Of a stretch of 64,000 nucleotides of DNA, positions 31,987 through 61,001 are shown in pieces. This stretch comes from Candidatus Limnocylindrales bacterium. Its GTDB lineage: Bacteria > Chloroflexota > Limnocylindria > Limnocylindrales > CSP1-4. The translations under genes and the position numbers were made by a program. The stretch lies in NCBI GenBank assembly GCA_035699445.1, contig DASSPX010000123.1, positions 35,777 through 99,776 on the forward strand. Direction: 5' to 3'. The notes under the pieces were generated by a model. The model searched no databases. It saw nothing but the letters and a program-made list of their open reading frames with translations, and was not told the origin of the DNA. Position 1 is the first letter of the stretch, and the number at the start of each line of letters is the position of its first letter.

Positions 31987-32930
31987 CGCCGCCCTCGCAG
32001 CTTCGGGTTCAGGACGTCGTCCAGCGCGCCGCCCACGAGCGTGAACGCGAGGACGACGAGCACGATGCACGTCGCGGGCGGAATTACGAACCACCACGCC
32101 CCCAGCCCGGCCGCGCCGGCGGCCTGGGCGGAGTTGAGCAGCAATCCCCAGGACGGCTGGAACGGGTCGCCGAGGCCGATGAACGAGAGGGTCGTCTCCG
32201 TCAGCACGGCGCTCGCGAACACGAGCACGGCATTGGCGACGATGAGGTTCACGACGTTGGGCAGGATGTGGCGGCGCATGATCGCGGCGTTGCCCGCGCC
32301 CACGACCCGCGCACGGTCCACGAATGCCCGCTCACGGAGTGACAGGGTCTGGCTGCGGACGATCCGCGCCGTCGACGCCCAGGACGTGATCCCGATCACG
32401 ACGACGATCACGATCAGGGTCACGCGCATGCCCAGGATCTCGCTCTGCGCGCCGATGAGCTCGATGAGGATCGGCGCCAGGATGAGCGCGAGCACGAACG
32501 TGGGGAGCACGAGGAAGAAGTCGGCGAAGCGCATGAGGACCGCGTCGAGCACGCCGCCCACGAATCCCGACACGATCCCGATGAGCGACCCGATCGCGAC
32601 CGTGATCACGGTCGCGAGCAGCCCGATGAGCATCGACACGCGCGTGCCGTGCACGGTGAGGTTCAGCAGGTCCTTGCCCAGGTCATCGGTGCCAAGGATG
32701 TGTCGCGGCGTGGGAGCCGCGAGGCGATCGCCGGTGGCCGAGGTGGCGGTTTCCAAGGGGCCGACGAACAGCTCGGGGGCGATCGCGAGCACCGCGAACA
32801 CGACCAGGATGAGCGAGCCGACGAGACCGTCCGGACGCGACAGGAACCGCGCGGCAAACTCCCGCACCGCCCGCGCACGGAGCCGCAGCCGGGCGGTGCG
32901 GACGTCGACCGGCGCCGTGCCGGCACTCAC
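31983..32930 (-). CDS. dppC: oligopeptide/dipeptide ABC transporter permease
   Basis: BPD_transp_1 permease (HILGTDDLGKD...SVTAGS-like region, 6 TM). GTG 32930 overlaps the dppB stop (GTGA). Confidence 0.85.
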   Translation of the reverse strand: MSAGTAPVDVRTARLRLRARAVREFAARFLSRPDGLVGSLILVVFAVLAIAPELFVGPLETATSATGDRLAAPTPRHILGTDDLGKDLLNLTVHGTRVSMLIGLLATVITVAIGSLIGIVSGFVGGVLDAVLMRFADFFLVLPTFVLALILAPILIELIGAQSEILGMRVTLIVIVVVIGITSWASTARIVRSQTLSLRERAFVDRARVVGAGNAAIMRRHILPNVVNLIVANAVLVFASAVLTETTLSFIGLGDPFQPSWGLLLNSAQAAGAAGLGAWWFVIPPATCIVLVVLAFTLVGGALDDVLNPKLRGRR

Positions 32931-33901
32931 GTCCGGACCCTCGGGTCGAGCACGCCGTACAGGAGGTCGGCGAGCAGGTTCGCGACGACGACCGACACGG
33001 CGAGGAGCAGGAACACGCCCTGGAGCACCGGGTAGTCCCGCGCGCTGAGCGCGGTCACGGCGAGCGTCCCGAGCCCCGGCCAGTTGAAGACCACCTCGGC
33101 CGTGATCGCCCCGGCGATCACGTAGCCCAACTGGATCGCGACGACGGTCACGGCGGGCAGGATCGCGTTGGGCAGGGCGTGGTGGCGAAGGATCCGGCCT
33201 TCGCGCAGCCCCTTTGCCCGGGCCGTCTGGACGTAGTCCTCCGCGAGCGTCTCGATGATCGCGGAGCGCATGAGGATCGAGTACAGCCCGATGAGCCCGA
33301 GCGACACCGTGGCGAGCGGCAGGGCGAAGTGCGCCGCGAAGTCGAGCAGCTGGTCCGCCGGCCCTGCGTAGGACGCGCCGGAGGTGAGCATCCCGCTCGT
33401 CGGGAACCAGCCGAGGGTTCGTGAGAAGACCATGAGCAGGAGCATCCCGAGCACGAAGTACGGCATCGAGTACAGGACGAGCGACAGGCCGTTGCCGAGA
33501 TAGTCGATCGGCCCACCCCGGCGCCACCCGGCATACGCCCCGAGCGACAGGCCGACCACGATCGCGATCGCCTCGCCGGCGCCGAAGAGCAGGATCGTGG
33601 GCCAGATCCTGTCGCCGATCACCTCGGTAACAGGGGCCCCGCGGTACTTGAACGAATAGCCGAGGTCCCCTCGGGAGACGTCGCCGAGGTAGGCGACGAA
33701 CTGGTCAGGAAAGACGGGCTTGTCCAGTCCCCACCGAACGCGAAGCTCGGCCTTCGCCTCAGCGGTCAGGTTGGGGTTGCGCGTGATGCTGCGCTCCGGC
33801 GAGCCCGGCATGAGCCGGAACAGGAAGAAGTTGAGAACGAGGATCAGCAGGATCGTCAGCACCGCCTGGACGACACGGCGAACCAGGAAGCTGGACCCCA
33901 T
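32927..33901 (-). CDS. dppB: oligopeptide/dipeptide ABC transporter permease
   Basis: MGSSFLVRRVVQAVLTILLILVLNFFLFRLMPGSP... is the canonical DppB/OppB N-terminus. ATG 33901. Confidence 0.85.
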   Translation of the reverse strand: MGSSFLVRRVVQAVLTILLILVLNFFLFRLMPGSPERSITRNPNLTAEAKAELRVRWGLDKPVFPDQFVAYLGDVSRGDLGYSFKYRGAPVTEVIGDRIWPTILLFGAGEAIAIVVGLSLGAYAGWRRGGPIDYLGNGLSLVLYSMPYFVLGMLLLMVFSRTLGWFPTSGMLTSGASYAGPADQLLDFAAHFALPLATVSLGLIGLYSILMRSAIIETLAEDYVQTARAKGLREGRILRHHALPNAILPAVTVVAIQLGYVIAGAITAEVVFNWPGLGTLAVTALSARDYPVLQGVFLLLAVSVVVANLLADLLYGVLDPRVRT

Positions 33902-33998
33902 GTCGCTCGCTCAGCCGGGCGCTGCGGGCGAACACCGGAGGGCCATGACGAGGCAGCCCTCGGGATCCGCATGCATCACGAACGCGCGACCGTCGCCG

Positions 33999-35894
33999 TC
34001 ACTCCTCCTCGGTCGTCGGCCCGCGGCGGCGGAACAGGACGAGCCCGACCGCGAGGATCGCCACCACGGCGAGGACGCCCACGATCAGGAGCGTCGAGTC
34101 GCCGCCCGACGCGGTCGGCTCGGCGCCGGGGCTCGGCGCCGGGGTTGCCGCACCGGCCGACGGCGAACCAGCCGGCTGGCTCGGCTCGGGACTTGGCTCG
34201 GCCGCTGTGAGCAGCGTGTAGTCGAGGGGCCCGTAGACGAACAGGGGCACGCCGTTGCTCGGCTGGTTCTGCCAGCCTCCGAAGCGATCGGTGCGATAGG
34301 CGTCCAGCTGGGCGTCGTAGAACAGGATGTGGTATGGCGCGTCGTCGTAGATGATGGCCTGCATCTCGTCCATGTAGCGCTTGCGCTCGGCCGGGTCGCT
34401 CGTCGCGTTCTGGAGCGCGTACAGCTCGTCATACCGAGGGTTGCAGTACATGCTGTCGCTTGATGCGCCGATCTCGTCGCACTTGAAGATGCTGAGGAGG
34501 GAGTTCGGGTCGACGTCACCGCCCCACGACCAGATGAACAGGTCATAGTCGGCGGTGTACTCCTCGCCCGCCTCCGGCGGCAGCATCTTGTCGATCAGCG
34601 TGTCCTGGTCGTACTGCTGGCTGTTGACCACGATGCCGAGCTGGCCGAACCAGTCGGCCACGAACTCCGCTGCCTGGGCGAAGGTCTCCTCGGAGTCCGG
34701 GAATACGAGCTCGAGCACGATCGGGTTGCCGTCCTTGTCGAGGCGGGCACCTGCGTCGTTGAGCACGTACCCGGCCGCGTCGAGCTTCTGGCGAGCCAGC
34801 TCCATGTCGAACGTCCGCGGGGTTGCCGGGGGCGTATGCCAGGCCGTCTGGAATGGCGGGACCTGGGTCGTGCCCACCTCGCCATAGCCGCCGAGGATCC
34901 GTTCGACGAGCAGCTCCTTGTCGATCGCGTAGCCGAGCGCATCGCGGAAGGCGGCGTCGAGCAGGGCGGGCGTGGACGGCCCGCCGTTCGGGATGGTCTT
35001 GCCCGTCCCGGTCCCGTACGTGTTGAACCCGAGCTCGGTGAAGCCGTTCGTCGTCCCGGCCACGGTCACGATGTTCGGCTGCCCGGTCAGCTGGTTGAAT
35101 TGATCCGGCAGCACGGCGCGCGCGTAATCGAGCTCGCCGTTCTGGAGGGCCTGGACCATCGTGTCCACAGCGTTCGCGTAGAACTGGATGATGACCTCGT
35201 CGGCGGCGCCCTGACGGCCGGTGAAGTGCTCGTTGCGGACGAACCGGACCGACTGGCCGATCTGCCACTCGACGGCCTGGTACGGTCCCGAGCCGACGAC
35301 GGGGGGCTCGTTCTGGAAGTCGCCGATCGTGTCGAGCGTCTGGCCTTCCCAGATGTGCTTGGGCAGGATCGGGACGTAGTTGGGGATGAGCCGCGTCGTG
35401 GGCGCAGAGACCTCGACCACGAAGGTCTGCGAGTCCGGTGCCGAAACGGCCGTGACCCCGGCATCGCCGAGGTAGTAGTCGATGTAGCCCAGCCCGACCG
35501 ACGTCTCGGCCGCAAGGGCGTCGAGCACCAGCTGGTAGGTCCAGCGCGCGTCCTCCGCCGTGGCCGGCGTGCCGTCGGACCACTTCTTGTCGGGCGAGAT
35601 CGTGAACGTCCAGGTCAGCCCGTCTTCGGACTCCTCCCACGACTCGGCGAACGCGGGCATCGGGGCCAGGTTCTCGTCCCAGTACGCGATCGTCTCGTAG
35701 TTGAGCGTGTACGCCTCGAACCCGACGGTCAGCGCCGTCCCCCACGGGTTCATCGAGTCGAGGTCCTGCGTCGTGCCGACCCGCAGGACGAGGGGCTCCT
35801 GGGCAGCGACCGGAACGGCCGGCAGGAGCAGGGCGGCGAGGACGCCGAACGCGGCGAGCACGCGTCCGACCCGGCGGCGATGGGCCACGACCAT
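33999..35894 (-). CDS. dppA: peptide ABC transporter substrate-binding protein (family 5) with C-terminal Pro/Ala-rich linker and TM anchor
   Basis: ATG 35894 with GGAGGAG 8 nt upstream. Signal peptide. SBP_bac_5 body. C-terminus ...AEPSPEPSQPAGSPSAGAATPAPSPGAEPTASGGDSTLLIVGVLAVVAILAVGLVLFRRRGPTTEEE. Confidence 0.85.
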   Translation of the reverse strand: MVVAHRRRVGRVLAAFGVLAALLLPAVPVAAQEPLVLRVGTTQDLDSMNPWGTALTVGFEAYTLNYETIAYWDENLAPMPAFAESWEESEDGLTWTFTISPDKKWSDGTPATAEDARWTYQLVLDALAAETSVGLGYIDYYLGDAGVTAVSAPDSQTFVVEVSAPTTRLIPNYVPILPKHIWEGQTLDTIGDFQNEPPVVGSGPYQAVEWQIGQSVRFVRNEHFTGRQGAADEVIIQFYANAVDTMVQALQNGELDYARAVLPDQFNQLTGQPNIVTVAGTTNGFTELGFNTYGTGTGKTIPNGGPSTPALLDAAFRDALGYAIDKELLVERILGGYGEVGTTQVPPFQTAWHTPPATPRTFDMELARQKLDAAGYVLNDAGARLDKDGNPIVLELVFPDSEETFAQAAEFVADWFGQLGIVVNSQQYDQDTLIDKMLPPEAGEEYTADYDLFIWSWGGDVDPNSLLSIFKCDEIGASSDSMYCNPRYDELYALQNATSDPAERKRYMDEMQAIIYDDAPYHILFYDAQLDAYRTDRFGGWQNQPSNGVPLFVYGPLDYTLLTAAEPSPEPSQPAGSPSAGAATPAPSPGAEPTASGGDSTLLIVGVLAVVAILAVGLVLFRRRGPTTEEE

Positions 35895-36050
35895 GCGGCG
35901 AGCTCCTCCTCTTCCGTCCGCCGCCGGGCCTCCCACCCGTCGTGCGGTCAACGACCCGCTGCCCGAGCGTGTGCCCGGCAGGGTCGCACAGGCCCCGGGG
36001 GCGATGCAACGGGTGTCGCAGTTCGCGACGGCTCCTGGGAACCGGTGCCG

Positions 36051-40220: not shown

Positions 40221-40847
40221 TCAGGCGACCACGTCGAGCAGGATCGACCCCGCCAGGGCGAGCACGATGATCGCCCCGAGGACGCTCGTCCACGTCCGCA
40301 CCTCGGGCGGCAGCCGGCGATGCCCCACGGCGGCGAGCGCCGCAAGCATCATCTGCCACACGAACGACGCACCGAACGCGCCGATAGCGAACGCAAGCTG
40401 CTCGTCGAGTCCCTCGGGACGTGACGGCAGGCCGACGATGAGCGCGGCGAAGTACACGAGCGTGAGCGGGTTCACGCCGGTCAGCCCGACGAACGTCAGG
40501 TACAGCCGGATGAGCGAGGGCGGCCGTTCGTCGCCGGGGGTCGCGGGTCCGGCGACCACCCGGCGCCGGGCGTCAACGAGCAGTCGCAGGCCGATGAGCG
40601 CCAGCACCACGGACGACGCGATCCGCACCGTCGACTCCCAGGGCGCGATCGCGACCGCGAGCGCGCCGCCGAACAGCGCCGCGATCGTGGCGTACGCGCC
40701 GTCCACCGTCGCCGCACCCGCGCCTGCCGCCGCTCCCGCGCGGAAGCCGCGGCGAAGCCCCATCTCGATGATCAGGACCGCGATCGCGCCCACGGGGATG
40801 GCCACCCCGAGGCCCGCGACGATGCCCGAGAGGAGCGCAGCCGCCAC
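40221..40847 (-). CDS. LysE/RhtB family amino-acid exporter
   Basis: 208 aa, 6 TM. The N-terminus MAAALLSGIVAGLGVAIPVGAIAVLII and length match the LysE translocator family. GTG 40847. Confidence 0.8.
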   Translation of the reverse strand: MAAALLSGIVAGLGVAIPVGAIAVLIIEMGLRRGFRAGAAAGAGAATVDGAYATIAALFGGALAVAIAPWESTVRIASSVVLALIGLRLLVDARRRVVAGPATPGDERPPSLIRLYLTFVGLTGVNPLTLVYFAALIVGLPSRPEGLDEQLAFAIGAFGASFVWQMMLAALAAVGHRRLPPEVRTWTSVLGAIIVLALAGSILLDVVA

Positions 40848-40859
40848 GACGACGGAGCG

Positions 40860-41903
40860 CTACCGGAGCGTGTCGAGCGCGGCCGCCCCCAGCAGCCCGG
40901 TGGCGAGTGCGACGAGCACCGAGGCGAGCGTGCCCAGCAGGTAGTACTCGGCGAACCCACGGTCGTCGAGCTGCTTGAAGCGCGCCAGCGTCTTGGCCGC
41001 GATCACGAACCCGATCGCCGCCTCCATCCCGACGAGCACGAACGTCACGACGAGCAGGCGTTCGAGCACGCCGATCGTCGCCCCGATGCGGGCCGGCGAC
41101 CCGGGCGTGCTGGGGACCGCCGCGGACACGCCGCTCACCGGCCGGCCGTCGGGTGCGGCTGCTCCGCGGCTCTCCGGCGCCGTTCCCGGCTCGACCGTCG
41201 CAACGAGCGGCCCGACCCGAACGGTGTAACCCGAGGGCGGAGGCGGGGGCGCGGGCTGCGGGTCGGGCGGCTCCTCCGTGCCGAGCACGACCTCGCGCGG
41301 ATGGACGAGCGTCGCAATGAAGAAGTACGCGCCCTTCGTGTTCGCGATCACGAGCGAGGTCACGACGACCGCCCACAGGGTCAGGGCGTGGACCGAGGCG
41401 GGGTCCCACCCGCCCACGATCCCGTTCACGGCGTCAACCCAGCCCGGCTGGAGCGGCGCGTGCGCCAGCAGGAACGCCCAGCCGGCGACCGCGATCCCGA
41501 GGTGGACGAGCTGGTCGACGATGTACAGCAGTCCCGGGATCGGCGTCCACGCGGAGCCGAGGCCAGCGCCCGGGCCCGCGGCCGGCTCGCCGTCGTCTGC
41601 CCGCCGCCGTGCGCGCTCCCGGGCCAGCGCCTCGGCGCGTCGGGTCGCCCCCACCTTCCATCGGTCGACGCCGATGTGGGTGGCCGCGGCGAGCAGGAGG
41701 AACGCGAGGCCGGGGCCGCCGTAGGCGAGCGGAACCGGGACGAGGCAGAGCGCGACGAGCGCGGCATGCACGAGCACGCCGTTCCATCCGCGGCGGCCCG
41801 TGCTCGCCTTCGTGATCGCGATCCAGTCGTTCTGCAGCACGAAGTCCGCCACGAAGTGCGAGCAGAACAGCCACGCGAGGACGAGGACCGGGTCGGCGGT
41901 CAC
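40860..41903 (-). CDS. DUF3307-like membrane protein
   Basis: N-terminal WLFCSHFVADFVLQNDWIA matches the HxxADFxLQ hallmark of DUF3307. Multiple TM helices separated by a Pro-rich loop. GTG 41903 overlaps the upstream stop (GTGA). Confidence 0.6.
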   Translation of the reverse strand: MTADPVLVLAWLFCSHFVADFVLQNDWIAITKASTGRRGWNGVLVHAALVALCLVPVPLAYGGPGLAFLLLAAATHIGVDRWKVGATRRAEALARERARRRADDGEPAAGPGAGLGSAWTPIPGLLYIVDQLVHLGIAVAGWAFLLAHAPLQPGWVDAVNGIVGGWDPASVHALTLWAVVVTSLVIANTKGAYFFIATLVHPREVVLGTEEPPDPQPAPPPPPSGYTVRVGPLVATVEPGTAPESRGAAAPDGRPVSGVSAAVPSTPGSPARIGATIGVLERLLVVTFVLVGMEAAIGFVIAAKTLARFKQLDDRGFAEYYLLGTLASVLVALATGLLGAAALDTLR

Positions 41904-42571
41904 GCGCTCCTCCCCGGTGCCGGCTGACCCTGCGGGAGGTCGGCAGTGCCCGCGGCGAACAGCGTCGCCAGCGCACGCCAGAGCCCGGCGAGTTCCCGGA
42001 CGCGCGCCCGGTCAGCCATCACGGACACTGTCGCGCGGGAGATGCCGAGGCGCTCCGCGACCTCGGCGCGGTGGACGCCGTCGAGGAGGAGCGGCCGCGC
42101 CACCTCGCGCTGCCGGGCGGTGAGGTCGGCCAGCAGGCGCGGCAGCAGCGGGGCGATGTCGGCGAGCACGGGATCGACACCCGGATCACCCGTCTCGACC
42201 TGGAGCCCGTCGCGGGTCGGCTTCGAGCGCTGCATCAGCGACCGCGCGCGGAGGAAGGCGGCGCCCGTCCGCTCGGTCGCCGGGCCCCGCCCGGGGTCGA
42301 CCGCGCCCGCCACGACGACCCACCGCATCGGCCGCGCATCGGACCGCAGTCCCGCGCGCATGACGAGCGCGAGCGGATCCGCCCCGATCGCGAGCAGCGC
42401 CTGGAGCTCGTCGCCCTGGGTGATCCCGGGCGTCGCGAGCCGAAGCGCCTCCGGGTAGCACGCGTCCATCTCGGCGATCAGCCCGCGCAGGAACGCCGTC
42501 GATGCCGCGGCCGCCCGCCGCGAACCGACGACGTCGCCGAACACGACGACCCCCGGATGTCCCTCGGGCAC
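41900..42571 (-). CDS. SatD-like regulator with C-terminal HTH
   Basis: N-terminal VVVFGDVVGSRR resembles SatD-family proteins. The C-terminus LTARQREVARPLLLDGVHRAEVAERLGISRATVSVMADRA is a sigma-70 region-4/LuxR-like HTH. GTG 42571. Confidence 0.55.
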   Translation of the reverse strand: MPEGHPGVVVFGDVVGSRRAAAASTAFLRGLIAEMDACYPEALRLATPGITQGDELQALLAIGADPLALVMRAGLRSDARPMRWVVVAGAVDPGRGPATERTGAAFLRARSLMQRSKPTRDGLQVETGDPGVDPVLADIAPLLPRLLADLTARQREVARPLLLDGVHRAEVAERLGISRATVSVMADRARVRELAGLWRALATLFAAGTADLPQGQPAPGRSA

Positions 42572-42656: not shown

Positions 42657-44186
42657 TCAAGCCGCGCCCCGATACGCTGGCAGCAGGCCGCCGAGGACCT
42701 CGGCGAGCTGCCGCTGGTGGTCCCGCGTCCCGAAGTCCAGCAGCGGGTTGCCGTCGAGCGCCCGCTCGTCGATCCGCCCGCCCGACCGGACGTAGACCAC
42801 GGGCTGGATCCCGCCGGCCCCATCGGACTCGACCGTCATCAGGACGGCGTCCGGTCCGTCCGCGTCGAGGACGTGGGCGAGCGGCTGGATGCCCGCGTCG
42901 ACGATCCCGGCGTCGGGGTCGAGCTCGACGACCCGCGCGAGATACGCCTTCTGGTGCCACAGCTCGGGTGCCACGGTCGCCTCCGCGAGCAGGTACCCGA
43001 GCAGCTCGGATTCGGCGATCGGCAGGCGCGGCGTGGTGATCCCGAAGCGGGTCTCGGCGATGTGCCGGGCGAGGATCCGGGCGTTGTAGCGATGGCCGTG
43101 GACGGCCCCCGAGTTCGCCGGCACGCCGTGCTTCTTCAGGCCTGCGGCGGCCTGGGTGATCGTGCCCGCGAAGAAGATCCCCGGGACCGTCGCGCTCTCC
43201 CAGAACGGCGTGACTGCCGGCAGCCGGCTCTGGCCGAACGTCGCGACGCCCACATCCGGCAGGTCGCGCAGCGGACAGGTGAAGCCCGTCGCCGCGATCG
43301 CCTCGTCGACCTCCACGGCGATCGGCATCCCGTTGTCGCTCCGGCGCAGCTCCACGCGGATGCCGCCGTCCGTCGGCACGACCTGCTCGAGGGACGCGTC
43401 GAGGATGGACACGCCGAAACCGAGGTAGTGGTCCTCGAACGGCTGGACGTACCGAGCGCGCACCCCGACGAGCGACCGCGTCATCACCGACAGCTTGGCC
43501 GGCGAGGGCGAGGCGATCACGATCCGCGACGCCCAGGCTGCGAGCCCGGACGCGAGCTCGAACCCGGAGTTCTGCTTGCCGAGGATGAACAGGCGCTTCC
43601 CGGCGTAGGAGGCCGCCTCGCGGGTGTCGGCGTAGTGCCGCACATGCTCCGCGCCGGGCGCCGGCGGGGTGAACGGCTCCGCCACGCCGACCGCGAGCAC
43701 GAGCACGCGCGCCCGGTACTCCCCGTCGGGGGTCTCGAGGATGAACACGGAGCCTTCGGCATCCTCCTCGCGCCGCGTCCGCTCCCAGCGGCAGTCGAAC
43801 CGGATCGCGAGCCGGGCACGCTCGGCGAACGTCGCCAGGTTCCGCTCCATCTCCGGTCGCGACGGGAAGTACGACGAGCCGTCCATGAACGTCGGCTGGA
43901 GCGCTCGCGCGTCGGGCTCGTCGGCGAGCAGGCTGTTCCAGTCGTAGCGCTCGTACTCGCGGGAGCCGCGCTCCGCCGGGGCGTACGGCTTCGTCCACGA
44001 CAGCAGGCGCTGGAAGAACGGCCAGCGACGGAACATCCCGCCGGGTGACGGATCGGCAGACAGGTGGGCGTACGGGACCCCGAGGCGGCGCAGCTCGTAC
44101 GCGACCTGGAGCCCGCCGGGGCCGCTGCCGACGACGATGCACGGGTACGCGCCCGGCGGATACGGACGCTCGTCCGCGCCGCTCAT
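42657..44186 (-). CDS. FAD/NAD(P)-binding oxidoreductase (flavin monooxygenase / pyridine-nucleotide disulfide oxidoreductase-like)
   Basis: Two dinucleotide-binding motifs (CIVVGSGPGGLQVAYEL and RLFILGKQNSGFELA) and the motif GIFFAGT. Confidence 0.7.
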   Translation of the reverse strand: MSGADERPYPPGAYPCIVVGSGPGGLQVAYELRRLGVPYAHLSADPSPGGMFRRWPFFQRLLSWTKPYAPAERGSREYERYDWNSLLADEPDARALQPTFMDGSSYFPSRPEMERNLATFAERARLAIRFDCRWERTRREEDAEGSVFILETPDGEYRARVLVLAVGVAEPFTPPAPGAEHVRHYADTREAASYAGKRLFILGKQNSGFELASGLAAWASRIVIASPSPAKLSVMTRSLVGVRARYVQPFEDHYLGFGVSILDASLEQVVPTDGGIRVELRRSDNGMPIAVEVDEAIAATGFTCPLRDLPDVGVATFGQSRLPAVTPFWESATVPGIFFAGTITQAAAGLKKHGVPANSGAVHGHRYNARILARHIAETRFGITTPRLPIAESELLGYLLAEATVAPELWHQKAYLARVVELDPDAGIVDAGIQPLAHVLDADGPDAVLMTVESDGAGGIQPVVYVRSGGRIDERALDGNPLLDFGTRDHQRQLAEVLGGLLPAYRGAA

Positions 44187-44608
44187 TGGTTCCGGTAGCG
44201 GTTCGCGTTCCGGAGCCGCCGGGCCTGGGCCTGGAGCATCCGGAACATCACCCTCGGGTGGGCGACGAGGAACGCCTCCACCCCCGAGCCGGCGAGCACG
44301 ATGCAGCGCAGCGGGCGGGTGGCGACCACGTCGGCCGACGGCGGCTCCCCGAGCAGGATCGACACCTCGCCGAAGAAGTCACCCTTGCTGAGGATCGCGC
44401 GATCCACCCCGTCGACGATCACCTTCGCCTCGCCGTCCAGGATGACGTAGAACCCGGAGCCGGTCAGGCCCTGGCGCAGGATCCGCTGGCCCTCCGGGAA
44501 GAACGCCTCCTCGAACGTGTGGGCGACCCCGAGGAGCTGCGGAGTGGTGAGGTCCGCGAACAGGGTGAAGCCGGCCAGCGTGTCGGCGATCTCGTCCCGG
44601 GTCGCCAT
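44183..44608 (-). CDS. cyclic-nucleotide-binding domain protein (CNB only, 141 aa)
   Basis: ATG 44608 with GGAGGG upstream. FFPEGQRILRQGLTGSGFYVILDGEAKV...GDFFGEVSILLGEPPSADVVA is a Crp/PKA-type CNB domain. No HTH or other effector domain. Confidence 0.75.
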   Translation of the reverse strand: MATRDEIADTLAGFTLFADLTTPQLLGVAHTFEEAFFPEGQRILRQGLTGSGFYVILDGEAKVIVDGVDRAILSKGDFFGEVSILLGEPPSADVVATRPLRCIVLAGSGVEAFLVAHPRVMFRMLQAQARRLRNANRYRNQ

Positions 44609-44735
44609 CGTCCCTCCGGTCGGCCGGCGCATCCCTGTGCGACGCGCGAGCAGTGCATGCGAGGCGGCGATCGTGCCACACCCGGACCCCGACCGGGAGC
44701 CCCGCGCGTTGACGCCGCCCGACGGGGACGGCACG

Positions 44736-45191
44736 ATGCGACCGACCGATGGCACGAGCACGATGACCCTCACCCACGACCGGCGCAGCGAGCTGCTCGC
44801 CGCCTGCCGCCTGTTCTCCGGTCTCGACGCGGCCAGCCTCGACGCCGTCGCCGAGGCCGCGATCGAGGTGGACTTTCCGGCCGACCGAGTCATCGCCCGC
44901 CAGGGCGACATCGGGACGGGGTTCTTCGTCGTCGTGGACGGCCGGGTGCGGGTCGTGCGCGACGGCGAGCGGGTGGCGACGCTCGGACCGGGCGAGTTCT
45001 TCGGCGAGCTGTCGGTGATCGACGGCGGGCCGCGGAACGCGCACGTCGTGGCCGAGGTGCCCACCCGCTGTCTCGCGATCGCATCGTGGGACTTCGAGCG
45101 CGTCCTGCTCGCCCACCCCGCGCTTGCGCTCACCGTGCTCCGGATCGTCGTCGCCCGCCTGCGCGCGTCGACGAGCGACCACCGGTACTGA
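44736..45191 (+). CDS. cyclic-nucleotide-binding domain protein (CNB only, ~150 aa)
   Basis: FSGLDAASLDAVAEAAIEVDFPADRVIARQGDIGTGFFVVVDGRVRV...GEFFGELSVIDGGPRNAHVVA. Start at ATG 44736 or 44763. Divergent from the other CNB gene. Confidence 0.7.
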   Translation: MRPTDGTSTMTLTHDRRSELLAACRLFSGLDAASLDAVAEAAIEVDFPADRVIARQGDIGTGFFVVVDGRVRVVRDGERVATLGPGEFFGELSVIDGGPRNAHVVAEVPTRCLAIASWDFERVLLAHPALALTVLRIVVARLRASTSDHRY

Positions 45192-45220
45192 CCCGGCCTC
45201 CGGACCAGCGGAGCGTCCGG

Positions 45221-47917
45221 ATGCCCGCCACGCTTCCCACCGGGCCGCTCGTGTTCTGCTTCACGGACATCGAGGGCTCGACCCGGCTCGTGCTCGATCT
45301 GGGCACCGATCGCTGGGAGCCCCTGCTCGCCCGTCATCGGGCGCTGCTGCGCGCCGCCATCGCGGGGCATGGCGGCCACGAGGTGCTGACGGAGGGGGAC
45401 GGGTTCTTCGTCGTGTTCACCGATCCGGTGGCGGCCGTGAGCGCTGCCGCCGACGTCCAGCGCGTCATGGCCGGCGAGGGGTGGCCGGCCGAGGCGCCGA
45501 TCCGGGTGCGGATCGGGCTCCACCTCGGTGACGGTCGGCTGGACGCGGACGGGACGTACGTCGGCGGCGACGTCCACCGTGCGGCGCGCATCGCCGCCGC
45601 GGGCCATGGCGGCCAGATCGTCTGCTCCGGGGAGCTCGCTGCCGCCGTTGCGGGTCGCCTTCCCGCCGGACTCGACCTCCGCTCGCAGGGCGAGCACCGG
45701 CTGAAGGACCTGCGCCCCGAACCGCTGTGGGACGTCGTCGTCGCCGGCCTGCCCTCGGACTTCCCGCCGATCCGCTCGCTCGATGCCCGGCCGAACAACC
45801 TGCCGGTCCAGCTCACGACGTTCGTCGGCCGGGAGCGGGAGCTGGCCGATGCGCTCGGGTTGCTCGATCGGAACCGGCTGGTGACGCTCACCGGGCCCGG
45901 CGGGACCGGCAAGACACGGCTGGCGCTCCACGTCGCGGCAAACGCGGCCGAGCGATTCGCGGACGGCGTGTGGTTCGTGCCCCTCGACACCGTCGTGGAC
46001 CCGACGCACGTCCTGCCCGCCGTCGCGACCGTGCTCCGCCTCCGCGAGCGCCCCGGCGTGGCCCACGCGTCGCTCATCGTCGAGGCGCTCGCCGGCCGAC
46101 GGGTGCTGCTCGTGCTCGACAACCTCGAGCAGGTGCTCGCCGCGGGGCCCTCGATCGCCGCGCTCCTCCGGGAGCTGCCGCTGCTCAAGGTGCTGGCCAC
46201 GAGCCGGGCCGTCCTCCGGGTCTCCGGCGAGCAGGAGCTGCCCGTGCCCGGCCTGCCGGTTCCGGAGCTGCCCGATCAGCGCACGGTCGCCCACGCCGGC
46301 GGCGGTCGACCCCGGACCGTGGACGAGCTCATGGCGTTCGACGCGGTCGGGCTGTTCGTGGCACGGGCGCAGGCCGCGCGGCCGGGGTTCGAGCTGTCGC
46401 CCGACAACGCGGTCGCGGTCGCCGCGATCTGCGCCCGGCTGTCGGGCATGCCGCTCGCGATCGAGCTCGCGGCGGCCCGGGTGCGGGTGCTCCCGCCGGC
46501 GACGATCCTCGAGCGGCTGTCACGAACGCTCGACCTGCTCACCGGCGGCGCGCGCGACCTCCCGGCGCGGCAGCAGAGCCTGCGCGGCGCGATCACGTGG
46601 AGCTACGAGGTGCTCGACGAGGCGTGCCGGCGCCTGCTCGAGCGGCTGGCCGTGTTCGCGGGCGGCGCGGCGCTCGAGGACGCAGAGGCGGTCTGCGGCC
46701 CGGCCGACGAGCTCGGCCAGGAGGTCATCGACGGGCTCGTCTCGCTTGCCGAGCAGAGCCTGATCCGGATCGACGCCGACACGCCCGGGTCGGCCACGGG
46801 CGGGCCACGCTACTCGCTCCTCGTGCCGATCCGCGAGTTCGCGCTCGAGCAGCTCGAGGCACGGGGCGAGGCCGCCGGGGTCCGGCGGCGCCATGCCACG
46901 AGGTTCCTCGAGCTCGTCGAGCTCGCCGCGCCGAACCTGACGGGACTCGATCGCGGCCGGTGGCTCGACCGGCTCGACGTGGAGCTCGAGAACCTGCGCG
47001 GGGCGCTCGACCACCTGATCGCGACGAGCGACGCAGCGGGCGCCTGGCGCTTCGTGGCCGCCGCATGGCGGTTCTGGCAGGTCCGCGGCCACATGGCCGA
47101 GGAGATCGCGCGCGTAAAGGCGGCGCTGGTGCTGCCTGCAGCGGAGGCGGACCTGGAGCTGCGCCTCCGCGCGGTCTCGGCGCTCGGCGGCCTGTGGTGG
47201 TGGATGGGCGATCACGACGCGTCGGCGGCGGCGTACCGGGAGGTGCTCGACGCCCGCCGCGCGCAGGGTGACGACGCGGCGATTGCCGCCGCGCTGTACG
47301 ACTACGGGTTCCCGCGCCAGTTCCGGAGCCCGGAGGAGGCGATGGCGGGGTTCGAGGAAGCGCGGGAGCGGTACGCCCGGCTCGGCGACGCCGACGGCGA
47401 GGCACGCGCGTGGTGGGGCATCGCGAACGCGGCATGGGTGCGCGGCGAGCAGGAGCAGTCCCGCGAGGCGGCGCGGCGGGCGGCCGGGCACTTCCGGGCC
47501 GCTGGCCTCCCGTTCGACCTCGCCTGGTCGCTGTTCACGCTGGGGACCGTCGCGATCAGCCTTCGGGAGTTCGAGGAGGCGCACGCCTCGCTCGTCGACG
47601 CGCTGTCCCTGTTCGCGGAGGTCGACGATCTCAGCGGCGCGGCGCTCACGCTCGACGCGCTGTCGCTGGCGGCGTGGCTCCAGGACGATCGAATGCGGGC
47701 CGCCCGGCTCGCCGGCGCGGTCGCACGTCTCGAGCGCTCGACGGGCTTCGGGCTCAACCCGGCGAACCGGGCCGTCCACGGCTACGACCCGGCGTCCCTT
47801 CGCGACGACCCGGCGACAGCGTCCGCGTGGGCCGAGGGCGACGCGATGGACCTCGCGCGCGTGATCGAGCTCGCCCGGGACGCAAGGCCGCTCGGGGCCG
47901 GGTCGGCCACGCCATGA
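45221..47917 (+). CDS. class III adenylate/guanylate-cyclase (CHD) – NB-ARC/STAND ATPase – TPR protein (898 aa)
   Basis: N-terminus VFCFTDIEGSTRL...GHEVLTEGDGFFVVF...YVGGDVHRAARIAAAGHGGQIVCS is the cyclase homology domain. It is followed by P-loop LTGPGGTGKTRLAL, Walker B LLVLDNLEQV, then helical/TPR-like repeats. There is no C-terminal HTH. ATG 45221. Confidence 0.9.
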   Translation: MPATLPTGPLVFCFTDIEGSTRLVLDLGTDRWEPLLARHRALLRAAIAGHGGHEVLTEGDGFFVVFTDPVAAVSAAADVQRVMAGEGWPAEAPIRVRIGLHLGDGRLDADGTYVGGDVHRAARIAAAGHGGQIVCSGELAAAVAGRLPAGLDLRSQGEHRLKDLRPEPLWDVVVAGLPSDFPPIRSLDARPNNLPVQLTTFVGRERELADALGLLDRNRLVTLTGPGGTGKTRLALHVAANAAERFADGVWFVPLDTVVDPTHVLPAVATVLRLRERPGVAHASLIVEALAGRRVLLVLDNLEQVLAAGPSIAALLRELPLLKVLATSRAVLRVSGEQELPVPGLPVPELPDQRTVAHAGGGRPRTVDELMAFDAVGLFVARAQAARPGFELSPDNAVAVAAICARLSGMPLAIELAAARVRVLPPATILERLSRTLDLLTGGARDLPARQQSLRGAITWSYEVLDEACRRLLERLAVFAGGAALEDAEAVCGPADELGQEVIDGLVSLAEQSLIRIDADTPGSATGGPRYSLLVPIREFALEQLEARGEAAGVRRRHATRFLELVELAAPNLTGLDRGRWLDRLDVELENLRGALDHLIATSDAAGAWRFVAAAWRFWQVRGHMAEEIARVKAALVLPAAEADLELRLRAVSALGGLWWWMGDHDASAAAYREVLDARRAQGDDAAIAAALYDYGFPRQFRSPEEAMAGFEEARERYARLGDADGEARAWWGIANAAWVRGEQEQSREAARRAAGHFRAAGLPFDLAWSLFTLGTVAISLREFEEAHASLVDALSLFAEVDDLSGAALTLDALSLAAWLQDDRMRAARLAGAVARLERSTGFGLNPANRAVHGYDPASLRDDPATASAWAEGDAMDLARVIELARDARPLGAGSATP

Positions 47918-50604
47918 CGCGGGGGCCCCTCCCGTCGGGCACCGTCACGTTCCTGTTCACCGACGTCGAGGGCTCGACGCGCCTGGTCGCCGACATCGGC
48001 GACGACGCGTACCGGGAGCTCCTCGACACGACCCGGCAACTGATCGCCGGCCCGGTGACGGCCGAGGGTGGCGTCGTGTTCGGTGCCGAGGGCGACGCGC
48101 AGTTCGCCGCGTTCGGGTCGGCCGTCGACGGCATCCGCGCCGCCGCCGCGGCGCAGCGGGCGATCGCGGGGTATCCGTGGCCCGGGACGCAGCTCCGCGT
48201 GCGGATGGGGGTCCACACCGGCGCCGCCCAGGTCGTGGGCGACGACTACGTGGGGCTCGAGGTCCATCGCGCGGCCCGCGTCGCCGCCGCGGCCCATGGC
48301 GGCCAGGTGCTCGTCTCTGGCTCGAGCCGCGCCCTCGCCTCGGAGGCGGCCCTCGATGGGCTGGGCTTCCGTGACCTGGGCGACCACCGCCTCAAGGACC
48401 TGGCCGTCCCGGAGCGGCTGTTCCAGCTCACCGGCGACGATCTCGAACCGACGTTTCCCCCGCCGCGCACGCTCGACGCCTCCCCGAACAACCTGCCTCC
48501 GCAGCTGACGCCGTTCGTCGGGCGCGCGGAGGTCGACACGATCGGGCGGGTGATCGACGAGGCACGTCTGGTGACGCTCACGGGACCGGGCGGCACGGGC
48601 AAGACGCGACTGTCCCTCGAGCTCGCCGGCGCGCGCCTCGGCCGGTACACCGGCGGCGTCTGGTTCGTGCCCCTCGCGTCGATCCGCGACCCCGAGCTGG
48701 TCGCCTCCGCGATCGCGACCGCCGTCGGACTCGTCGCCCCGGGCCGGCCGCCGCTCGAACGCCTGATCGAGCATTTCCGTGACCGCGATGCGCTTGTCGT
48801 GCTCGACAACTTCGAGCAGGTCGTCGACGCCGCGCCGACCGTTTCGGCGCTGCTGGCGGGCGTGCCGGGCCTGCGCGTCGTCGTCACCAGCCGCGGGCCA
48901 CTGCGGATCGCCGGGGAGCGGGAGCTGCCCGTCCCGCCGCTCGCCGTGCCCGCGGTGAGCGAGCTGGATCCGGACGCCCTCGTCCAGGTCGAATCCGTGC
49001 GGCTGTTCGTCGAGCGGGCGATGGCCGTCCGCCCCGACTTCGTGCTGACGCCGGACAACGCGGCCGCGATCACCGAGATCGTCCATCGGCTCGATGGCCT
49101 GCCCCTCGCGATCGAGCTCGCGGCTGCCCGCGTCCGCCTGCTGCCGCCGGTCGCGCTCGCCCAACGGCTCGGGAGCCGGCTCGACCTCCTCGTCGGCGGC
49201 GATCGGGACCGGTCCGACCGGCAGCGAACACTCCGCGGCGCGATCGAGTGGAGCCACGACCTGCTCGATGCGCCGGCTCGCCTGGCGTTCGCGCGGCTGG
49301 GGGTGATCCGGGGGAGCGCACCGCTCGACGTCGCCGTGGAGCTGGCGGGGCCCGCGGACGAACTGGGCGCCGATCCCCTGGCGACGCTCGAGGCACTCCT
49401 CGACCAGAGCCTGGTGCGTGCGCTCCCGGGCGAATCCGGCGAGTCGCGCATCTCGATGCTCGAAACGATCCGCGAGTACGCGCTCGAACGGCTCACCGAG
49501 CTGGGCGAGACGGAGCGGCTTCGGGACCGGCACGCCGCGATCTACGAGCGGCTCGCCGCGGAGCTCAGCCGGAGCCTCTACGGCCGGAACCGGCGCCAGG
49601 TGCTCGATCGATACGAGCTCGAGCATGACGACCTGCGCGCGGCGCTCGAGTGGCGGATCGCGCAGGACGACTGCGAGCGTGCGGCGGCACTCCTCGTGTC
49701 CACGTGGCGGTTCTGGCAGGCGCGGGGCCACATCGAGGAGGGGCGGCAGCGTGCGGACGAGGTGCTGGAGATCGTCGGCTGGCCGACGACGCCGCCCGGG
49801 GCGCGGATCCAGGCCCTCGAGGCGGCGGGTGGCCTCGCGTACTGGGCGGGCGACCTGCCGCTCGCCCACCGCCGATACGCGGAGCAGCTCGAGATCGCCC
49901 GGCGGATCGATGAGCCCGCGCTGATCGCGAACGCGCTCCTCAATCTCGCCGCGAGCCCCACGGACGATCGCGACCAGACGGCGTGGATGGCGTCGGTCGC
50001 GTCGTCGCTCACGATGGCCGAGGAAGCCCTGGCCCGGTTTCGTGCCCTGGGTGACGAGGACGGCGAGGCCAGGGCGTTCTGGCAGGTGGGGGAGTCCCGG
50101 TTCTACCGCGGCGAGATCGATGCCGCCGAGGAGGCGCAGACCGCGGCGCTCGGAATCTTCGAGCGGCGGGGCGAGGAGTTCTGGTCCGCGTGGGCGAGGT
50201 TCACCCGCGGGCTCTCCCGCTGGACGCGAGGCGACGTCGCCGGCCTGCTGACCGATGCGCGCGCGGCGCTCGAGCGCTTCGAGCGCGCTGGCGACCTGTC
50301 CGGTCTCGCGCTCCTCGGGATCCTCCTCGCCGCGGTGCTCCACGACCGGGGGCTCCAACGTGAGGCGCAGCGGCTGGCGGGCGCCGTCCAGGGCGTCATC
50401 GAGCGGTCCGGGGCGGGCCTCGGGCTGCTTGTCCCTGGCGGCGCGGATCGGCCGCTGCTCGACGCCCGCGCGGATCCCGCGCTGCGCGCCGAATGGGAGG
50501 CCGGGTTCGGGCTGGGACGGGATGAGGCGTTCGCGCTCGCGCTCGCCGCCACCGAGCCCGACGGCCTCGGCCCGGGTGTGGACCGCAGCCGGACGCCGGG
50601 GTAG
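47914..50604 (+). CDS. class III nucleotidyl-cyclase (CHD) – NB-ARC/STAND ATPase – TPR protein, paralog 2 (896 aa)
   Basis: Same architecture as the upstream gene (TFLFTDVEGSTRL...; LTGPGGTGKTRLSL; VVLDNFEQV; TPR-like C-terminus). The ATG overlaps the stop of paralog 1 (ATGA). Confidence 0.9.
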   Translation: MTRGPLPSGTVTFLFTDVEGSTRLVADIGDDAYRELLDTTRQLIAGPVTAEGGVVFGAEGDAQFAAFGSAVDGIRAAAAAQRAIAGYPWPGTQLRVRMGVHTGAAQVVGDDYVGLEVHRAARVAAAAHGGQVLVSGSSRALASEAALDGLGFRDLGDHRLKDLAVPERLFQLTGDDLEPTFPPPRTLDASPNNLPPQLTPFVGRAEVDTIGRVIDEARLVTLTGPGGTGKTRLSLELAGARLGRYTGGVWFVPLASIRDPELVASAIATAVGLVAPGRPPLERLIEHFRDRDALVVLDNFEQVVDAAPTVSALLAGVPGLRVVVTSRGPLRIAGERELPVPPLAVPAVSELDPDALVQVESVRLFVERAMAVRPDFVLTPDNAAAITEIVHRLDGLPLAIELAAARVRLLPPVALAQRLGSRLDLLVGGDRDRSDRQRTLRGAIEWSHDLLDAPARLAFARLGVIRGSAPLDVAVELAGPADELGADPLATLEALLDQSLVRALPGESGESRISMLETIREYALERLTELGETERLRDRHAAIYERLAAELSRSLYGRNRRQVLDRYELEHDDLRAALEWRIAQDDCERAAALLVSTWRFWQARGHIEEGRQRADEVLEIVGWPTTPPGARIQALEAAGGLAYWAGDLPLAHRRYAEQLEIARRIDEPALIANALLNLAASPTDDRDQTAWMASVASSLTMAEEALARFRALGDEDGEARAFWQVGESRFYRGEIDAAEEAQTAALGIFERRGEEFWSAWARFTRGLSRWTRGDVAGLLTDARAALERFERAGDLSGLALLGILLAAVLHDRGLQREAQRLAGAVQGVIERSGAGLGLLVPGGADRPLLDARADPALRAEWEAGFGLGRDEAFALALAATEPDGLGPGVDRSRTPG

Positions 50605-50613
50605 AGCCCCGGC
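50595..50613. terminator. GC-rich hairpin between convergent stop codons (possible bidirectional terminator)
   Basis: gccgggg-tagag-ccccggc: a 7-bp perfect stem with a 5-nt loop. It spans the TAG of cyclase paralog 2 and lies next to the punA stop. There is no U-tract, which is common in high-GC genomes. Confidence 0.3.
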
Positions 50614-59779: not shown

Positions 59780-59884
59780 GACGCCAAGAGCCTAGCCAAA
59801 GGCCGATGGCCCGGGCGGGCGATTCGAACCGGACGACGGCCGCCGCTCGTCAGCGTCGACGCCGCGGAGGACCCGGCGAACGGA

Positions 59885-60862
59885 TCACCGCGCAGGCGGG
59901 CCGATCCGCTCCCGTGCGAGACGGCCGGCCGACGGCGGGTTCGCCGGAACGTCGTCGCCACTGGCAATCGCGAGCCCCTCGCGCATGGATGGCACCTGCG
60001 GCGTCCACGCGGAGGCGTCCCGGAAGCGCCGATTCGACACCCGATGGCTGGACAGGAGGAACGAGGCACCGGATCCGGCCAGTGCGATCTCCACAGCCGG
60101 CGGTGGTCGCCGGAGGCTGCGCCGTCCCACGAGGCGGGCCAGCACCTCGTCGATTTCCCGCCGGCGCATCGGCTGGTCGTCCACGACGTCGTAGATCCCG
60201 GGAGGGACGCGCAGCGCGGCGACGAGCGCGGCGCCCGCGTCCTCGGTCCACAGGCTCGACTGATACCCATCCGTCGCCCCGACAATGCCCGAGAAGCCCC
60301 GCCTCGCTTCCTCGAGGAGTGTCGCGGCGACCGGCGTCCCTGGGCCGTACAGCATGCCGAGTCGCAGGACGATGCCTCCCGCTCGCGCGTCACCGAACGC
60401 GCGAACCATGCTCTCTGCCTCGAGTGAGCTCGCCGTGGTCCACGTCGGCGAGACGGCTGCGGTCGGCGCCTCGATCCAGCCGTCGCCGCCGTCGGCGTAG
60501 AGCAGCGTCACCGATGGGTACGCGATGGTCTTCACCCCTGCCGACGCCGCGGCCGCCACGATGAGCCGTGTCCCCTCGGTCCGGATGCGGTCGTTCTCTG
60601 CCCAGGCGTCCCTCGAGTCCATCCGAGAGCTCGGCGGGATCCGCGTGGCGAGGTGCAGGACCGCGGCGACACCGCCCATGCCGCGCTGCAGCGCGTCCGG
60701 ATCGAACAGACTGCCGACGACCGGCTCCACACCTGCGGCTCGCAGACGGGAGGCAGCCTCCTCGTCTCGGGCGAGCGCGCGGACGGCGTGGCCCGCGTTG
60801 AGCAGCCGCGGGGTGGCGGCTGACCCGAGCACGCCAGTGACGCCCGTGACGAACACATCCAT
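59885..60862 (-). CDS. NAD-dependent epimerase/dehydratase (extended SDR)
   Basis: ATG 60862 with AGGAG upstream. The Rossmann motif is VFVTGVTGVLGSA. The ORF-track N-terminal extension to 60955 is unlikely. Confidence 0.75.
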   Translation of the reverse strand: MDVFVTGVTGVLGSAATPRLLNAGHAVRALARDEEAASRLRAAGVEPVVGSLFDPDALQRGMGGVAAVLHLATRIPPSSRMDSRDAWAENDRIRTEGTRLIVAAAASAGVKTIAYPSVTLLYADGGDGWIEAPTAAVSPTWTTASSLEAESMVRAFGDARAGGIVLRLGMLYGPGTPVAATLLEEARRGFSGIVGATDGYQSSLWTEDAGAALVAALRVPPGIYDVVDDQPMRRREIDEVLARLVGRRSLRRPPPAVEIALAGSGASFLLSSHRVSNRRFRDASAWTPQVPSMREGLAIASGDDVPANPPSAGRLARERIGPPAR

Positions 60863-61001
60863 GAGGTAGCTCCTGATCGGCGACGCAACGTGCATCGCGT
60901 ATCCCTGCCGCGATACGCACGATTGATCAACGCGGGCGAGCGAGTGGGTATGCACGGACGTCCACGATGTGCACCGCCGAACGACGCAGGGCGACGGGCG
61001 A

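Follow-up and report, generated by a model that had tools for sequence, protein, structure and literature searches.

A 64,000-nucleotide stretch of a Candidatus Limnocylindrales genome (Chloroflexota; assembly GCA_035699445.1, contig DASSPX010000123.1, positions 35,777 to 99,776; hereafter the window) carries two tandem genes, CycSTAND-A and CycSTAND-B, whose products join a class-III nucleotidyl cyclase domain to a signal transduction ATPase with numerous domains (STAND) and a tetratricopeptide repeat (TPR) arm; beside them lie two genes for stand-alone cyclic-nucleotide-binding (CNB) proteins and one for a flavoprotein, PyrRedox. On balance, we favour the view that these genes are a chromosomal, vertically inherited signalling cassette of soil Chloroflexota-type bacteria, working with a cyclic nucleoside monophosphate (cNMP), in which a STAND-gated cyclase would be the writer, the CNB proteins the readers and the flavoenzyme the likely output. 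In its general character, the cassette resembles normal cell signalling more than a system for phage defence. Two divergent operons make it up, CNB2-CycSTAND-A(-B) in one direction and CNB1-flavoprotein(-HTH-DUF3307-LysE) in the other, HTH being a helix-turn-helix protein, and a compact promoter region between them is common to both. The core features are:

42657..44186, minus strand: PyrRedox, a 509-residue flavoprotein with two dinucleotide-binding domains (Pyr_redox_2/3)
44183..44608, minus strand: CNB1, 141 residues, a stand-alone CNB fold; phosphate-binding cassette FGEVSILLGEPPSADVVA, with Pro in place of the phosphate-clamping Arg
44670..44678, minus strand: CNB1-side element ATCGTGCCA, which reads TGGCACGAT on the CNB1 strand
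44709..44737, plus strand: CNB2 promoter element TTGACG-N17-CACGAT, sigma-70-like (TTGACG 44709-44714, CACGAT 44732-44737)
44763..45191, plus strand: CNB2, 142 residues, stand-alone; phosphate-binding cassette FGELSVIDGGPRNAHVVA with Glu and Arg; opens the CNB2-CycA-CycB operon
45221..47917, plus strand: CycSTAND-A, 898 residues, class-III cyclase–STAND NTPase–TPR
47914..50604, plus strand: CycSTAND-B, 896 residues, a paralog with the architecture of A

Conservation and distribution of the cassette

The first-pass annotation of the window had proposed that the cyclase and CNB genes are a linked writer–reader unit, and this linkage recurs in independent genome and metagenome samples. A protein identical to CycSTAND-A is encoded on a farmland-soil metagenome contig, where CNB1/PyrRedox are followed by the small HTH gene, DUF3307 and LysE, and where a gene for purine-nucleoside phosphorylase, PNP, lies beyond B; relatives whose cyclases are 59-91% identical share the divergent layout, one of them having a single cyclase. 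To reach further, species-representative genomes were scanned with the family alignment, yielding 80 loci (all at most 53% identical), mostly from Chloroflexota (Candidatus Limnocylindria and metagenome-assembled genomes labelled 'Chloroflexia') with some from Acidimicrobiia, Actinomycetota and Dormibacterota. Partners were sought with the window proteins in six-frame open reading frames (ORFs) and counted at the 64 loci whose upstream flank extends 2.5 kb or more: CNB1 and PyrRedox are found at 37, CNB2 too at 31, and none of these at the 25 that we call solo paralogs. The first-pass annotation had suggested looking for conservation of the neighbourhood across Actinobacteria; it is conserved mostly in Chloroflexota (Limnocylindria), and the actinobacterial loci are all among the solo paralogs. 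In metagenomes, CNB1 loci with enough flank have PyrRedox directly downstream in 56/57 cases, a divergent CNB2 in 51/59 and a cyclase-STAND gene in 36/42; starting from PyrRedox on long contigs, the full core is present in 2/3.

Around this core the immediate flanks vary (Thy1, MFS, AHSA1, cupin, MIP, LysE, DUF3307). Rearranged loci (L028 and L034, both colinear, L041, L055 and L076) still adjoin CNB1-PyrRedox, and in a neighbour-joining tree the cyclases found beside CNB1-PyrRedox form one main clade (40/44 tips) and occupy at least three further places among the solo clades. The variable flanks, the rearranged versions and the several cyclase sublineages are evidence that the cyclase–CNB linkage is more than inertia. 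The tandem itself is more restricted: only in L001-3, L005, L012 and L022 do B-type orthologs stand in tandem.

Further out, many positive loci share DAO, NUDIX and PepS15 genes upstream and PNP downstream, so that the cassette occupies a constant position within a chromosomal region of conserved gene order. The same comparison points to a probable origin of the window in Limnocylindria-like bacteria and not in Actinobacteria. The median identity between the window and the syntenic loci is lowest for CycA (47.5%) and rises through DAO (54.5%), NUDIX and CNB2 (57% each), PepS15 (61%), PyrRedox (63%) and CNB1 (72%) to PNP (77%). By these identities CycSTAND diverges only moderately faster than its housekeeping neighbours, and among the eight genes CNB1 ranks second in conservation, after PNP.

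The divergent promoter region

The intergenic region (44609..44762) is a compact, conserved divergent promoter region, as judged from the orthologous regions of loci L002-L088. A TTGACR-N16-18-CAssAT element is present in 28/34 orthologous CNB1/CNB2 intergenic regions (shuffle mean 0.004), its -10-like hexamer ending 21-67 nt upstream of the conserved CNB2 methionine. On the other side, ATCGTGCCA is present in 26/34 (shuffle mean 0.2) and probably serves as the -10 region for transcription of CNB1-PyrRedox. It lies 61 nt from the CNB1 start in the window and 6-7 nt from it in many relatives, a spacing that suggests leaderless CNB1 mRNAs in the latter. A generic consensus scan for promoters and terminators over 44100-51000 made no call, including at both conserved elements, and the promoter claim is therefore based on conservation across loci.

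These alignments also revise one gene start. CNB2 orthologs begin at a conserved MTLTHDRR and ATG 44736, the start given in the first-pass annotation, sits within the conserved -10-like hexamer; the start of CNB2 is thus most likely ATG 44763. What that annotation had described as two divergent proteins made of nothing but a CNB domain stands as far as the single cNMP_binding domains are concerned (CNB1 8e-15, 55 bits; CNB2 6e-21, 74.6 bits), but CNB1 is not an isolated gene: it overlaps PyrRedox by 4 nt and heads an operon that includes the flavoprotein gene. CNB2, for its part, is co-oriented with the cyclase at a gap of 1-70 nt.

The cyclase–STAND–TPR proteins

The G+C content of the window is 74% and long spurious ORFs are common, so third-position GC was used as a sign of coding. 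It amounts to 0.92-0.96 in all four ORFs of the first-pass annotation (the CNB and CycSTAND genes), the coding signature of such a window. The description of A and B as cyclase–STAND–TPR paralogs overlapping by an ATGA is borne out by coordinates, third-position GC, Pfam and, for A, AlphaFold2/Foldseek: the stop of A and the start of B share this ATGA (a 4-nt overlap), and the two proteins are 44% identical across 788 residues. B is more distant from A than database homologs of ~50% identity are, which makes the A/B duplication old. The family is very abundant (at least 8000 homologs) and is already annotated as 'predicted ATPase/class 3 adenylate cyclase'. CycSTAND-A divides as follows:

Residues 1-175: class-III cyclase domain
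Residues ~176-205: conserved linker with a PNNLP motif
Residues ~206-560: AP-ATPase/NB-ARC-type nucleotide-binding oligomerisation domain (NOD), with Walker A GPGGTGKT, Walker B VLLVLDN and a GMPLAIELAA motif
Residues ~561-886: TPR sensor arm

The Pfam model Guanylate_cyc exceeds its gathering threshold of 21.9 in both proteins (A 25.9 bits, B 22.7 bits). The P-loop/STAND models AAA_16, NB-ARC, NACHT and nSTAND1/3 match residues 200-330, all slightly under their thresholds; in particular, NB-ARC scores 21.9 bits in A against a gathering score of 23.5 and gives no match in B at E<=0.01. TPR_12 matches the C-terminal third of A and B, weak NCBIfam matches point to AfsR and the HaaT/FxSxx TPR-STANDs, and the HTH_77 call of the precomputed source annotation is the internal winged helix of the NOD. 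The sequence motifs GPGGTGKT, VLDN(L/F)EQ (hhhhDN.E) and G(M/L)PLAIELAA are invariant or almost so in the family. The proteins have the Walker A and B motifs, the GxPLA motif (ARC1), the winged-helix domain and the Apaf-1/CED-4-like NOD fold by which STAND NTPases of the AP-ATPase/NB-ARC clade are recognised.

An AlphaFold2 model of CycSTAND-A built from 75 homologs (predicted local distance difference test, 90.2; predicted TM-score, 0.74) consists of the cyclase domain, the NOD and then all-helical repeats up to residue ~886. In Foldseek its best whole-chain match is the archaeal TPR-STAND 6MFV (E 2e-11), its cyclase domain superimposes on those of Ma1120 and Rv1900c at TM-scores of ~0.9 and its NOD resembles Apaf-1 and CED-4; no Avs structure is among the best 50 matches. 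No C-terminal HTH or other DNA-binding domain was detected by Pfam in A or B, and the A model continues as TPR-like helices to the C-terminus, both in agreement with the earlier statement that a LuxR HTH is missing.

For the active site, the cyclase domains of A and B were aligned to Ma1120 and Rv1900c, their nearest relatives (E 1e-19 to 1e-22 for Ma1120; ~32% identity), and residues were counted over 94 family sequences (numbering of A):

Positions 16 and 60, metal-binding Asp: Asp in A and B, and in all 94 (one gapped)
Position 123, transition-state Arg: Arg in A and B, invariant in the 94
Position 119, transition-state Asn: His in A and B; Asn in 37 and His in 57 of the 94, His as in Rv1900c
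Position 56, purine-specifying Lys: Leu in A, Gly in B, mostly Gly in the family
Position 112, purine-specifying Asp: Thr in A, Asp in B; Asp, Ser, Thr or Gly in the family

Of the catalytic residues whose integrity the first-pass annotation had asked about, A and B retain the two metal Asps, along with the transition-state Arg; the Asn is His in both, and the Lys is Leu (A) or Gly (B). Given that the metal Asps and the Arg are kept in 94 diverged sequences, the predicted catalytic machinery is under purifying selection. An A/B heterodimer with complementary, degenerate active-site halves was considered and ruled out, each paralog retaining both metal Asps and the Arg. As to the product, cyclase homology domains produce cyclic mononucleotides, and the 'cyclic (di)nucleotide' of the first-pass annotation was too loose.

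The CNB proteins and the flavoprotein

CNB1 and CNB2 are 40% identical and most resemble the CNB domains of PKG and PKA. In such domains the Arg and the Gly-Glu of the phosphate-binding cassette contact the cyclic phosphodiester and the ribose 2'-OH (PMC11224242). CNB2 keeps the Arg in 39/39 orthologs (FGE...PRNA, the Arg aligned with that of the PKG/PKA 'PRSA'). CNB1 retains the FGE and has Pro for Arg in 46/46 orthologs, its 'EPPSAD' aligning with the 'EPRSAT' of PKG. The signalling cassette in this way draws attention to a conserved protein of CNB fold that lacks the canonical Arg.

The best folds for PyrRedox are YpdA/Bdr, bacterial flavin-containing monooxygenase (FMO) and a thioredoxin reductase (TrxR)-like FNR, at TM-scores of 0.73-0.76. 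The family alignment contains no conserved CxxC, and the C-terminal ~120-residue domain matches no assigned family. The best 120 homologs are 66-94% identical and ~508 residues long, and none is a PyrRedox–CNB fusion; an exhaustive search of the representative library likewise gave no true CNB-PyrRedox or CNB-cyclase fusion. Four apparent CNB-PyrRedox fusions (P0365, P0257, P0287 and P0259) were rejected as frameshifted gene calls that merge two overlapping genes: they have ~140-residue N-terminal extensions, three with cNMP_binding matches, in which genuine segments alternate with Arg/Pro-rich out-of-frame stretches. These artefacts support only the adjacency of CNB and PyrRedox, and domain-fusion inference from metagenome protein catalogues of high-GC assemblies needs caution.

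Downstream of PyrRedox, the CNB1 operon of the window continues with three lineage-specific genes (40221..42571, minus strand), found in a minority of cassettes:

41900..42571, minus strand: HTH protein, 223 residues, with a C-terminal sigma70-r4/KorA/LuxR-like HTH
40860..41903, minus strand: DUF3307
40221..40847, minus strand: LysE exporter

The N-terminal part of the HTH protein has the conserved motifs FGDVxxSRR ... FTQGDExQGLL ... GPATERTG and a weak match to SatD of Pfam (E 0.044). A cyclase-homology-like N-terminal domain was considered for it and dismissed: hhalign against the CycSTAND family gave a probability below 1% and a PDB profile search found the HTH only. Where the HTH protein is present, DUF3307 comes after it in the loci whose gene order was inspected.

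Searches for defence-related features

The syntenic flanks of the cassette are housekeeping genes (PNP, MoaA, NUDIX, peptidase S15 and an N-methyl-Trp oxidase-like gene). No integrase, transposase or recognisable defence gene was found in the 64-kb window, and PADLOC returned only fold-level matches and no defence hits on ten neighbours; the co-occurrence with defence islands that the first-pass annotation had suggested looking for was not seen at either scale. The PADLOC Avs models match neither A nor B, the PycC models do not match A and match B marginally (E 1.5e-3, 8.9e-3), and CNB1 and CNB2 match just the CNBD portion of PycTIR. There is no TIR, transmembrane, nuclease or protease effector in the block, both CNB proteins being single-domain proteins of 141-142 residues. 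On mobile elements the family is nearly missing: viral contigs gave one marginal match and are otherwise essentially void of it, and plasmids have no homolog covering at least 80% of the query, only distant partial ones.

Proposed mechanism and alternative explanations

STAND NTPases pass from a closed monomer to an oligomer upon binding of ligand and ATP, and class III cyclases must dimerise to be active, their active sites lying at the interface. By analogy with STAND biology, CycSTAND would be a MalT/Apaf-type switch: a ligand on the TPR arm and ATP in the NOD would bring about oligomerisation, and oligomerisation would let the N-terminal cyclase domains pair into a dimer that forms the active site. 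The dimer would make a 3',5'-cNMP, most probably cAMP if homology is a guide, which CNB2, with its intact phosphate-binding cassette, may bind and read. CNB1, in which the phosphate-clamping Arg is lost and to which the flavoprotein is translationally coupled, would most likely be an adaptor or a regulatory subunit, possibly paired with CNB2, that passes the signal to the NAD(P)H-dependent flavoenzyme. Along this route the output would be enzymatic/redox instead of a fused DNA-binding domain. In the lineage of the window, the small HTH protein, DUF3307 and the LysE exporter extend the CNB1 operon.

The gene structures, the domains, the conserved catalytic residues, the conserved cassette, the promoter motifs and the housekeeping context were observed directly; ligand-gated oligomerisation, the identity of the product and the binding partners are inferred. 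Several points weigh against a signalling cassette of this kind. The adenine-specifying Lys/Asp pair is mostly missing and variable family-wide, so that the sequence does not show which base is specified: cAMP is our guess, a default by homology alone with the adenylyl cyclases Ma1120 and Rv1900c as nearest relatives of the domain, and the enzyme may be of low activity. Among the partners, CNB1 lacks the canonical Arg though it is, PyrRedox aside, the one most persistently linked to the cyclase; CNB2 is absent in ~9 cluster-positive genome loci; and at L086 (6454..10530 of a 3.6-Mb contig) CNB2 lies divergent to CNB1-PyrRedox-HTH-DUF3307 with an MFS transporter in the cyclase slot. The conservation comes largely from one bacterial class with extended synteny, meaning that part of the linkage could be inheritance and not selection. 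The TPR arm is the fastest-evolving portion of the protein (37-49% identity; mean pairwise identity in the family alignment 40-49%, against 63% for the cyclase domain and 61% for the NOD), yet it is alignable end to end. Finally, a 2026 preprint (bioRxiv 10.64898/2026.08.12.744502) expects immune roles for STAND-fused cNMP cyclases generally; the 'immune clade 1' that it predicts, whose cyclases are joined to NACHT/AP-ATPase modules, is argued from the length of the branches and from neighbours of conflict type.

Phylogenetic inertia is unlikely, if the most probable of the alternatives: the CycSTANDs would be ordinary LuxR-less members of the large adenylyl cyclase (AC)-ATPase-TPR family that feed a global cAMP pool, next to an unrelated CNB/flavoprotein operon. 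The likewise conserved outer flanks (DAO, NUDIX, PepS15, PNP) speak of strong general synteny, ~25/64 family loci are solo paralogs without partners, L086 has the CNB and PyrRedox genes without the cyclase while L037 has CNB2-Cyc without CNB1/PyrRedox, and the missing true fusions fit as well. Against this, the four-gene core stays while its immediate flanks change, it survives inversions and re-orderings (L028, L034, L055, L076), several cyclase sublineages are involved, CNB2 is co-oriented with the cyclase and close to it, and the shared divergent promoter region is conserved. Much less credit goes to the possibility that the cyclase-like domains are non-catalytic in vivo, as nucleotide-binding or dimerisation modules or very weak enzymes, and that the CNB folds bind another ligand, which we hold for very improbable. 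The Guanylate_cyc scores are barely over threshold, both paralogs have His for Asn, the Lys/Asp pair that would set specificity is lacking and CNB1 is without the Arg that clamps the cyclic phosphate; however, conservation across the 94 diverged sequences is 100% for the metal Asps and for the transition-state Arg, the solved adenylyl cyclase Rv1900c has the same His and a non-Lys at the aligned positions, and CNB2 keeps the full Gly-Glu...Arg cassette.

The first-pass annotation had raised an Avs-like or Pycsar-like role, which our results do not support. Such an anti-phage or conflict system would unite Avs-like sensing and signalling of the Pycsar/Pucsar type: a STAND pattern-recognition receptor would raise a cyclase signal for the CNB readers, and the flavoprotein might be the effector, consuming NAD(P)H when a cNMP triggers it. 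STAND and TPR modules are frequent in immune sensors, and a Nature 2026 survey that scored STAND clades as defence-associated by neighbourhood or effector found them interspersed with non-defence clades (PMC13581612). The pairing of a cyclase with CNB readers follows the logic of Pycsar, the TPR arm evolves faster than the remaining protein, CycSTAND is the most diverged gene of its neighbourhood and the non-canonical base-specifying residues allow for an unusual nucleotide, all points in favour beside the predicted 'immune clade 1'. On the other side stand the lack of Avs matches, a PycC match that is marginal and confined to B, CNB proteins that match only the CNBD part of PycTIR and are fused to no effector, the same position between housekeeping genes in relatives just 45-55% identical, the absence of integrase, transposase and defence genes in 64 kb, near absence from viral contigs, the lack of full-length plasmid copies, and a cyclase domain far nearer to physiological mycobacterial adenylyl cyclases than to PycC. 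We consider the immune explanation improbable.

The signalling cassette that we prefer could still be of a new kind. One can imagine a novel circuit in which a STAND-gated cyclase, possibly making something other than cAMP given the variable base-specifying residues, controls an FMO/TrxR-like flavoenzyme through a canonical CNB protein and a pseudo-receptor, or else a fixed immune module with a cNMP-triggered, NAD(P)H-consuming flavoprotein; that either holds seems to us unlikely.

Relation to known systems

To our knowledge, neither the inputs nor the cognate readers of cyclase-STAND-TPR proteins are known, and in the cassette such a cyclase is naturally and conservedly paired with two candidates for its readers, CNB2 and CNB1, and with one for an enzymatic output. 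One protein of this type, Rv0386, is reported to matter for Mycobacterium tuberculosis virulence; its canonical substrate-specifying residues are reportedly replaced, according to work by Castro et al. in 2005. Together with Rv1358 and Rv2488c it belongs to the mycobacterial AC-ATPase-(TPR)-LuxR proteins, which have the same N-terminal class-III cyclase and STAND-type ATPase (PMC3938503). The cyclase domain is also of the same mycobacterial subtype, that of Ma1120 and Rv1900c, but the proteins described here lack the LuxR HTH, come from Chloroflexota and have two CNB-only proteins and a flavoprotein as conserved partners, a setting for which the mycobacterial genes have no described counterpart. 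The cyclase domains of Ma1120 (M. avium) and Rv1900c/LipJ (M. tuberculosis) themselves are the best sequence and structure matches and share the metal Asps and the Arg; unlike the CycSTANDs they have no STAND-TPR module, and where Ma1120 has the Lys/Asp pair, A has Leu/Thr and B Gly/Asp. With the MalT-type TPR-STANDs (archaeal PH0952, the protein of 6MFV, and AfsR) the NOD and the TPR arm are held in common and ligand- and ATP-dependent oligomerisation is expected, whereas the output of CycSTAND would be a nucleotidyl cyclase and not a DNA-binding domain.

Among immune systems, Pycsar consists of a PycC cyclase and a CNBD-TIR or transmembrane effector (PMC11224242). Pycsar/Pucsar and our cassette have in common a gene for a class-III-fold cyclase beside a gene for a CNB-domain reader; they differ in that the readers are CNB-only here, the cyclase is predicted to be STAND-gated and is not PycC-like, and the context is housekeeping with no defence island. 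Avs and the predicted 'immune clade 1' have the same layout of N-terminal enzyme, STAND NTPase and TPR, in contrast to which the CycSTANDs match no Avs model, have no defence neighbourhood and evolve at a moderate rate only. In this respect the cassette is a counter-example that tempers the assumption that STAND-fused cyclases are immune. In the searchable literature, no paper was found that joins STAND, adenylate cyclase, TPR and CNB, nor CNB, thioredoxin reductase and a cyclase neighbourhood; while the family is known, the cassette with its two CNB-only proteins (one a pseudo-receptor), its flavoprotein and its distribution in Limnocylindria appears to be undescribed.

Other features of the window

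Elsewhere in the 64 kb lie genes for housekeeping, for transport and for signalling (GreA, MoaA, acetyl-CoA synthetase, an Opp-type ABC transporter, MscS and UbiE), and Rfam and tRNA scans of the whole window gave no RNA genes. A 2064-residue sensor histidine kinase (7112..13306, minus strand) combines eight GAF and at least three PAS domains with HisKA_3/HATPase_c, and is followed by a REC-only (6566..6949, minus strand) and a REC-LuxR (5846..6505, minus strand) response regulator. The 372-residue ORF at 3596..4714 (plus strand), of uncertain start codon, has GreA/GreB domains only in its C-terminal ~150 residues, the N-terminal ~220 being unmatched; a similarly long GreA-like gene (433 residues) is called in L088. 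A 356-residue ORF (59885..60955, minus strand) lies inside a 1.2-kb stretch, 59780..61000, that was left without a gene call based on third-position GC. Finally, G+C falls to ~0.69 at 32000..36000, over the genes of the Opp-type ABC transporter (SBP_bac_5 at 33999..35861), against ~0.74 elsewhere.

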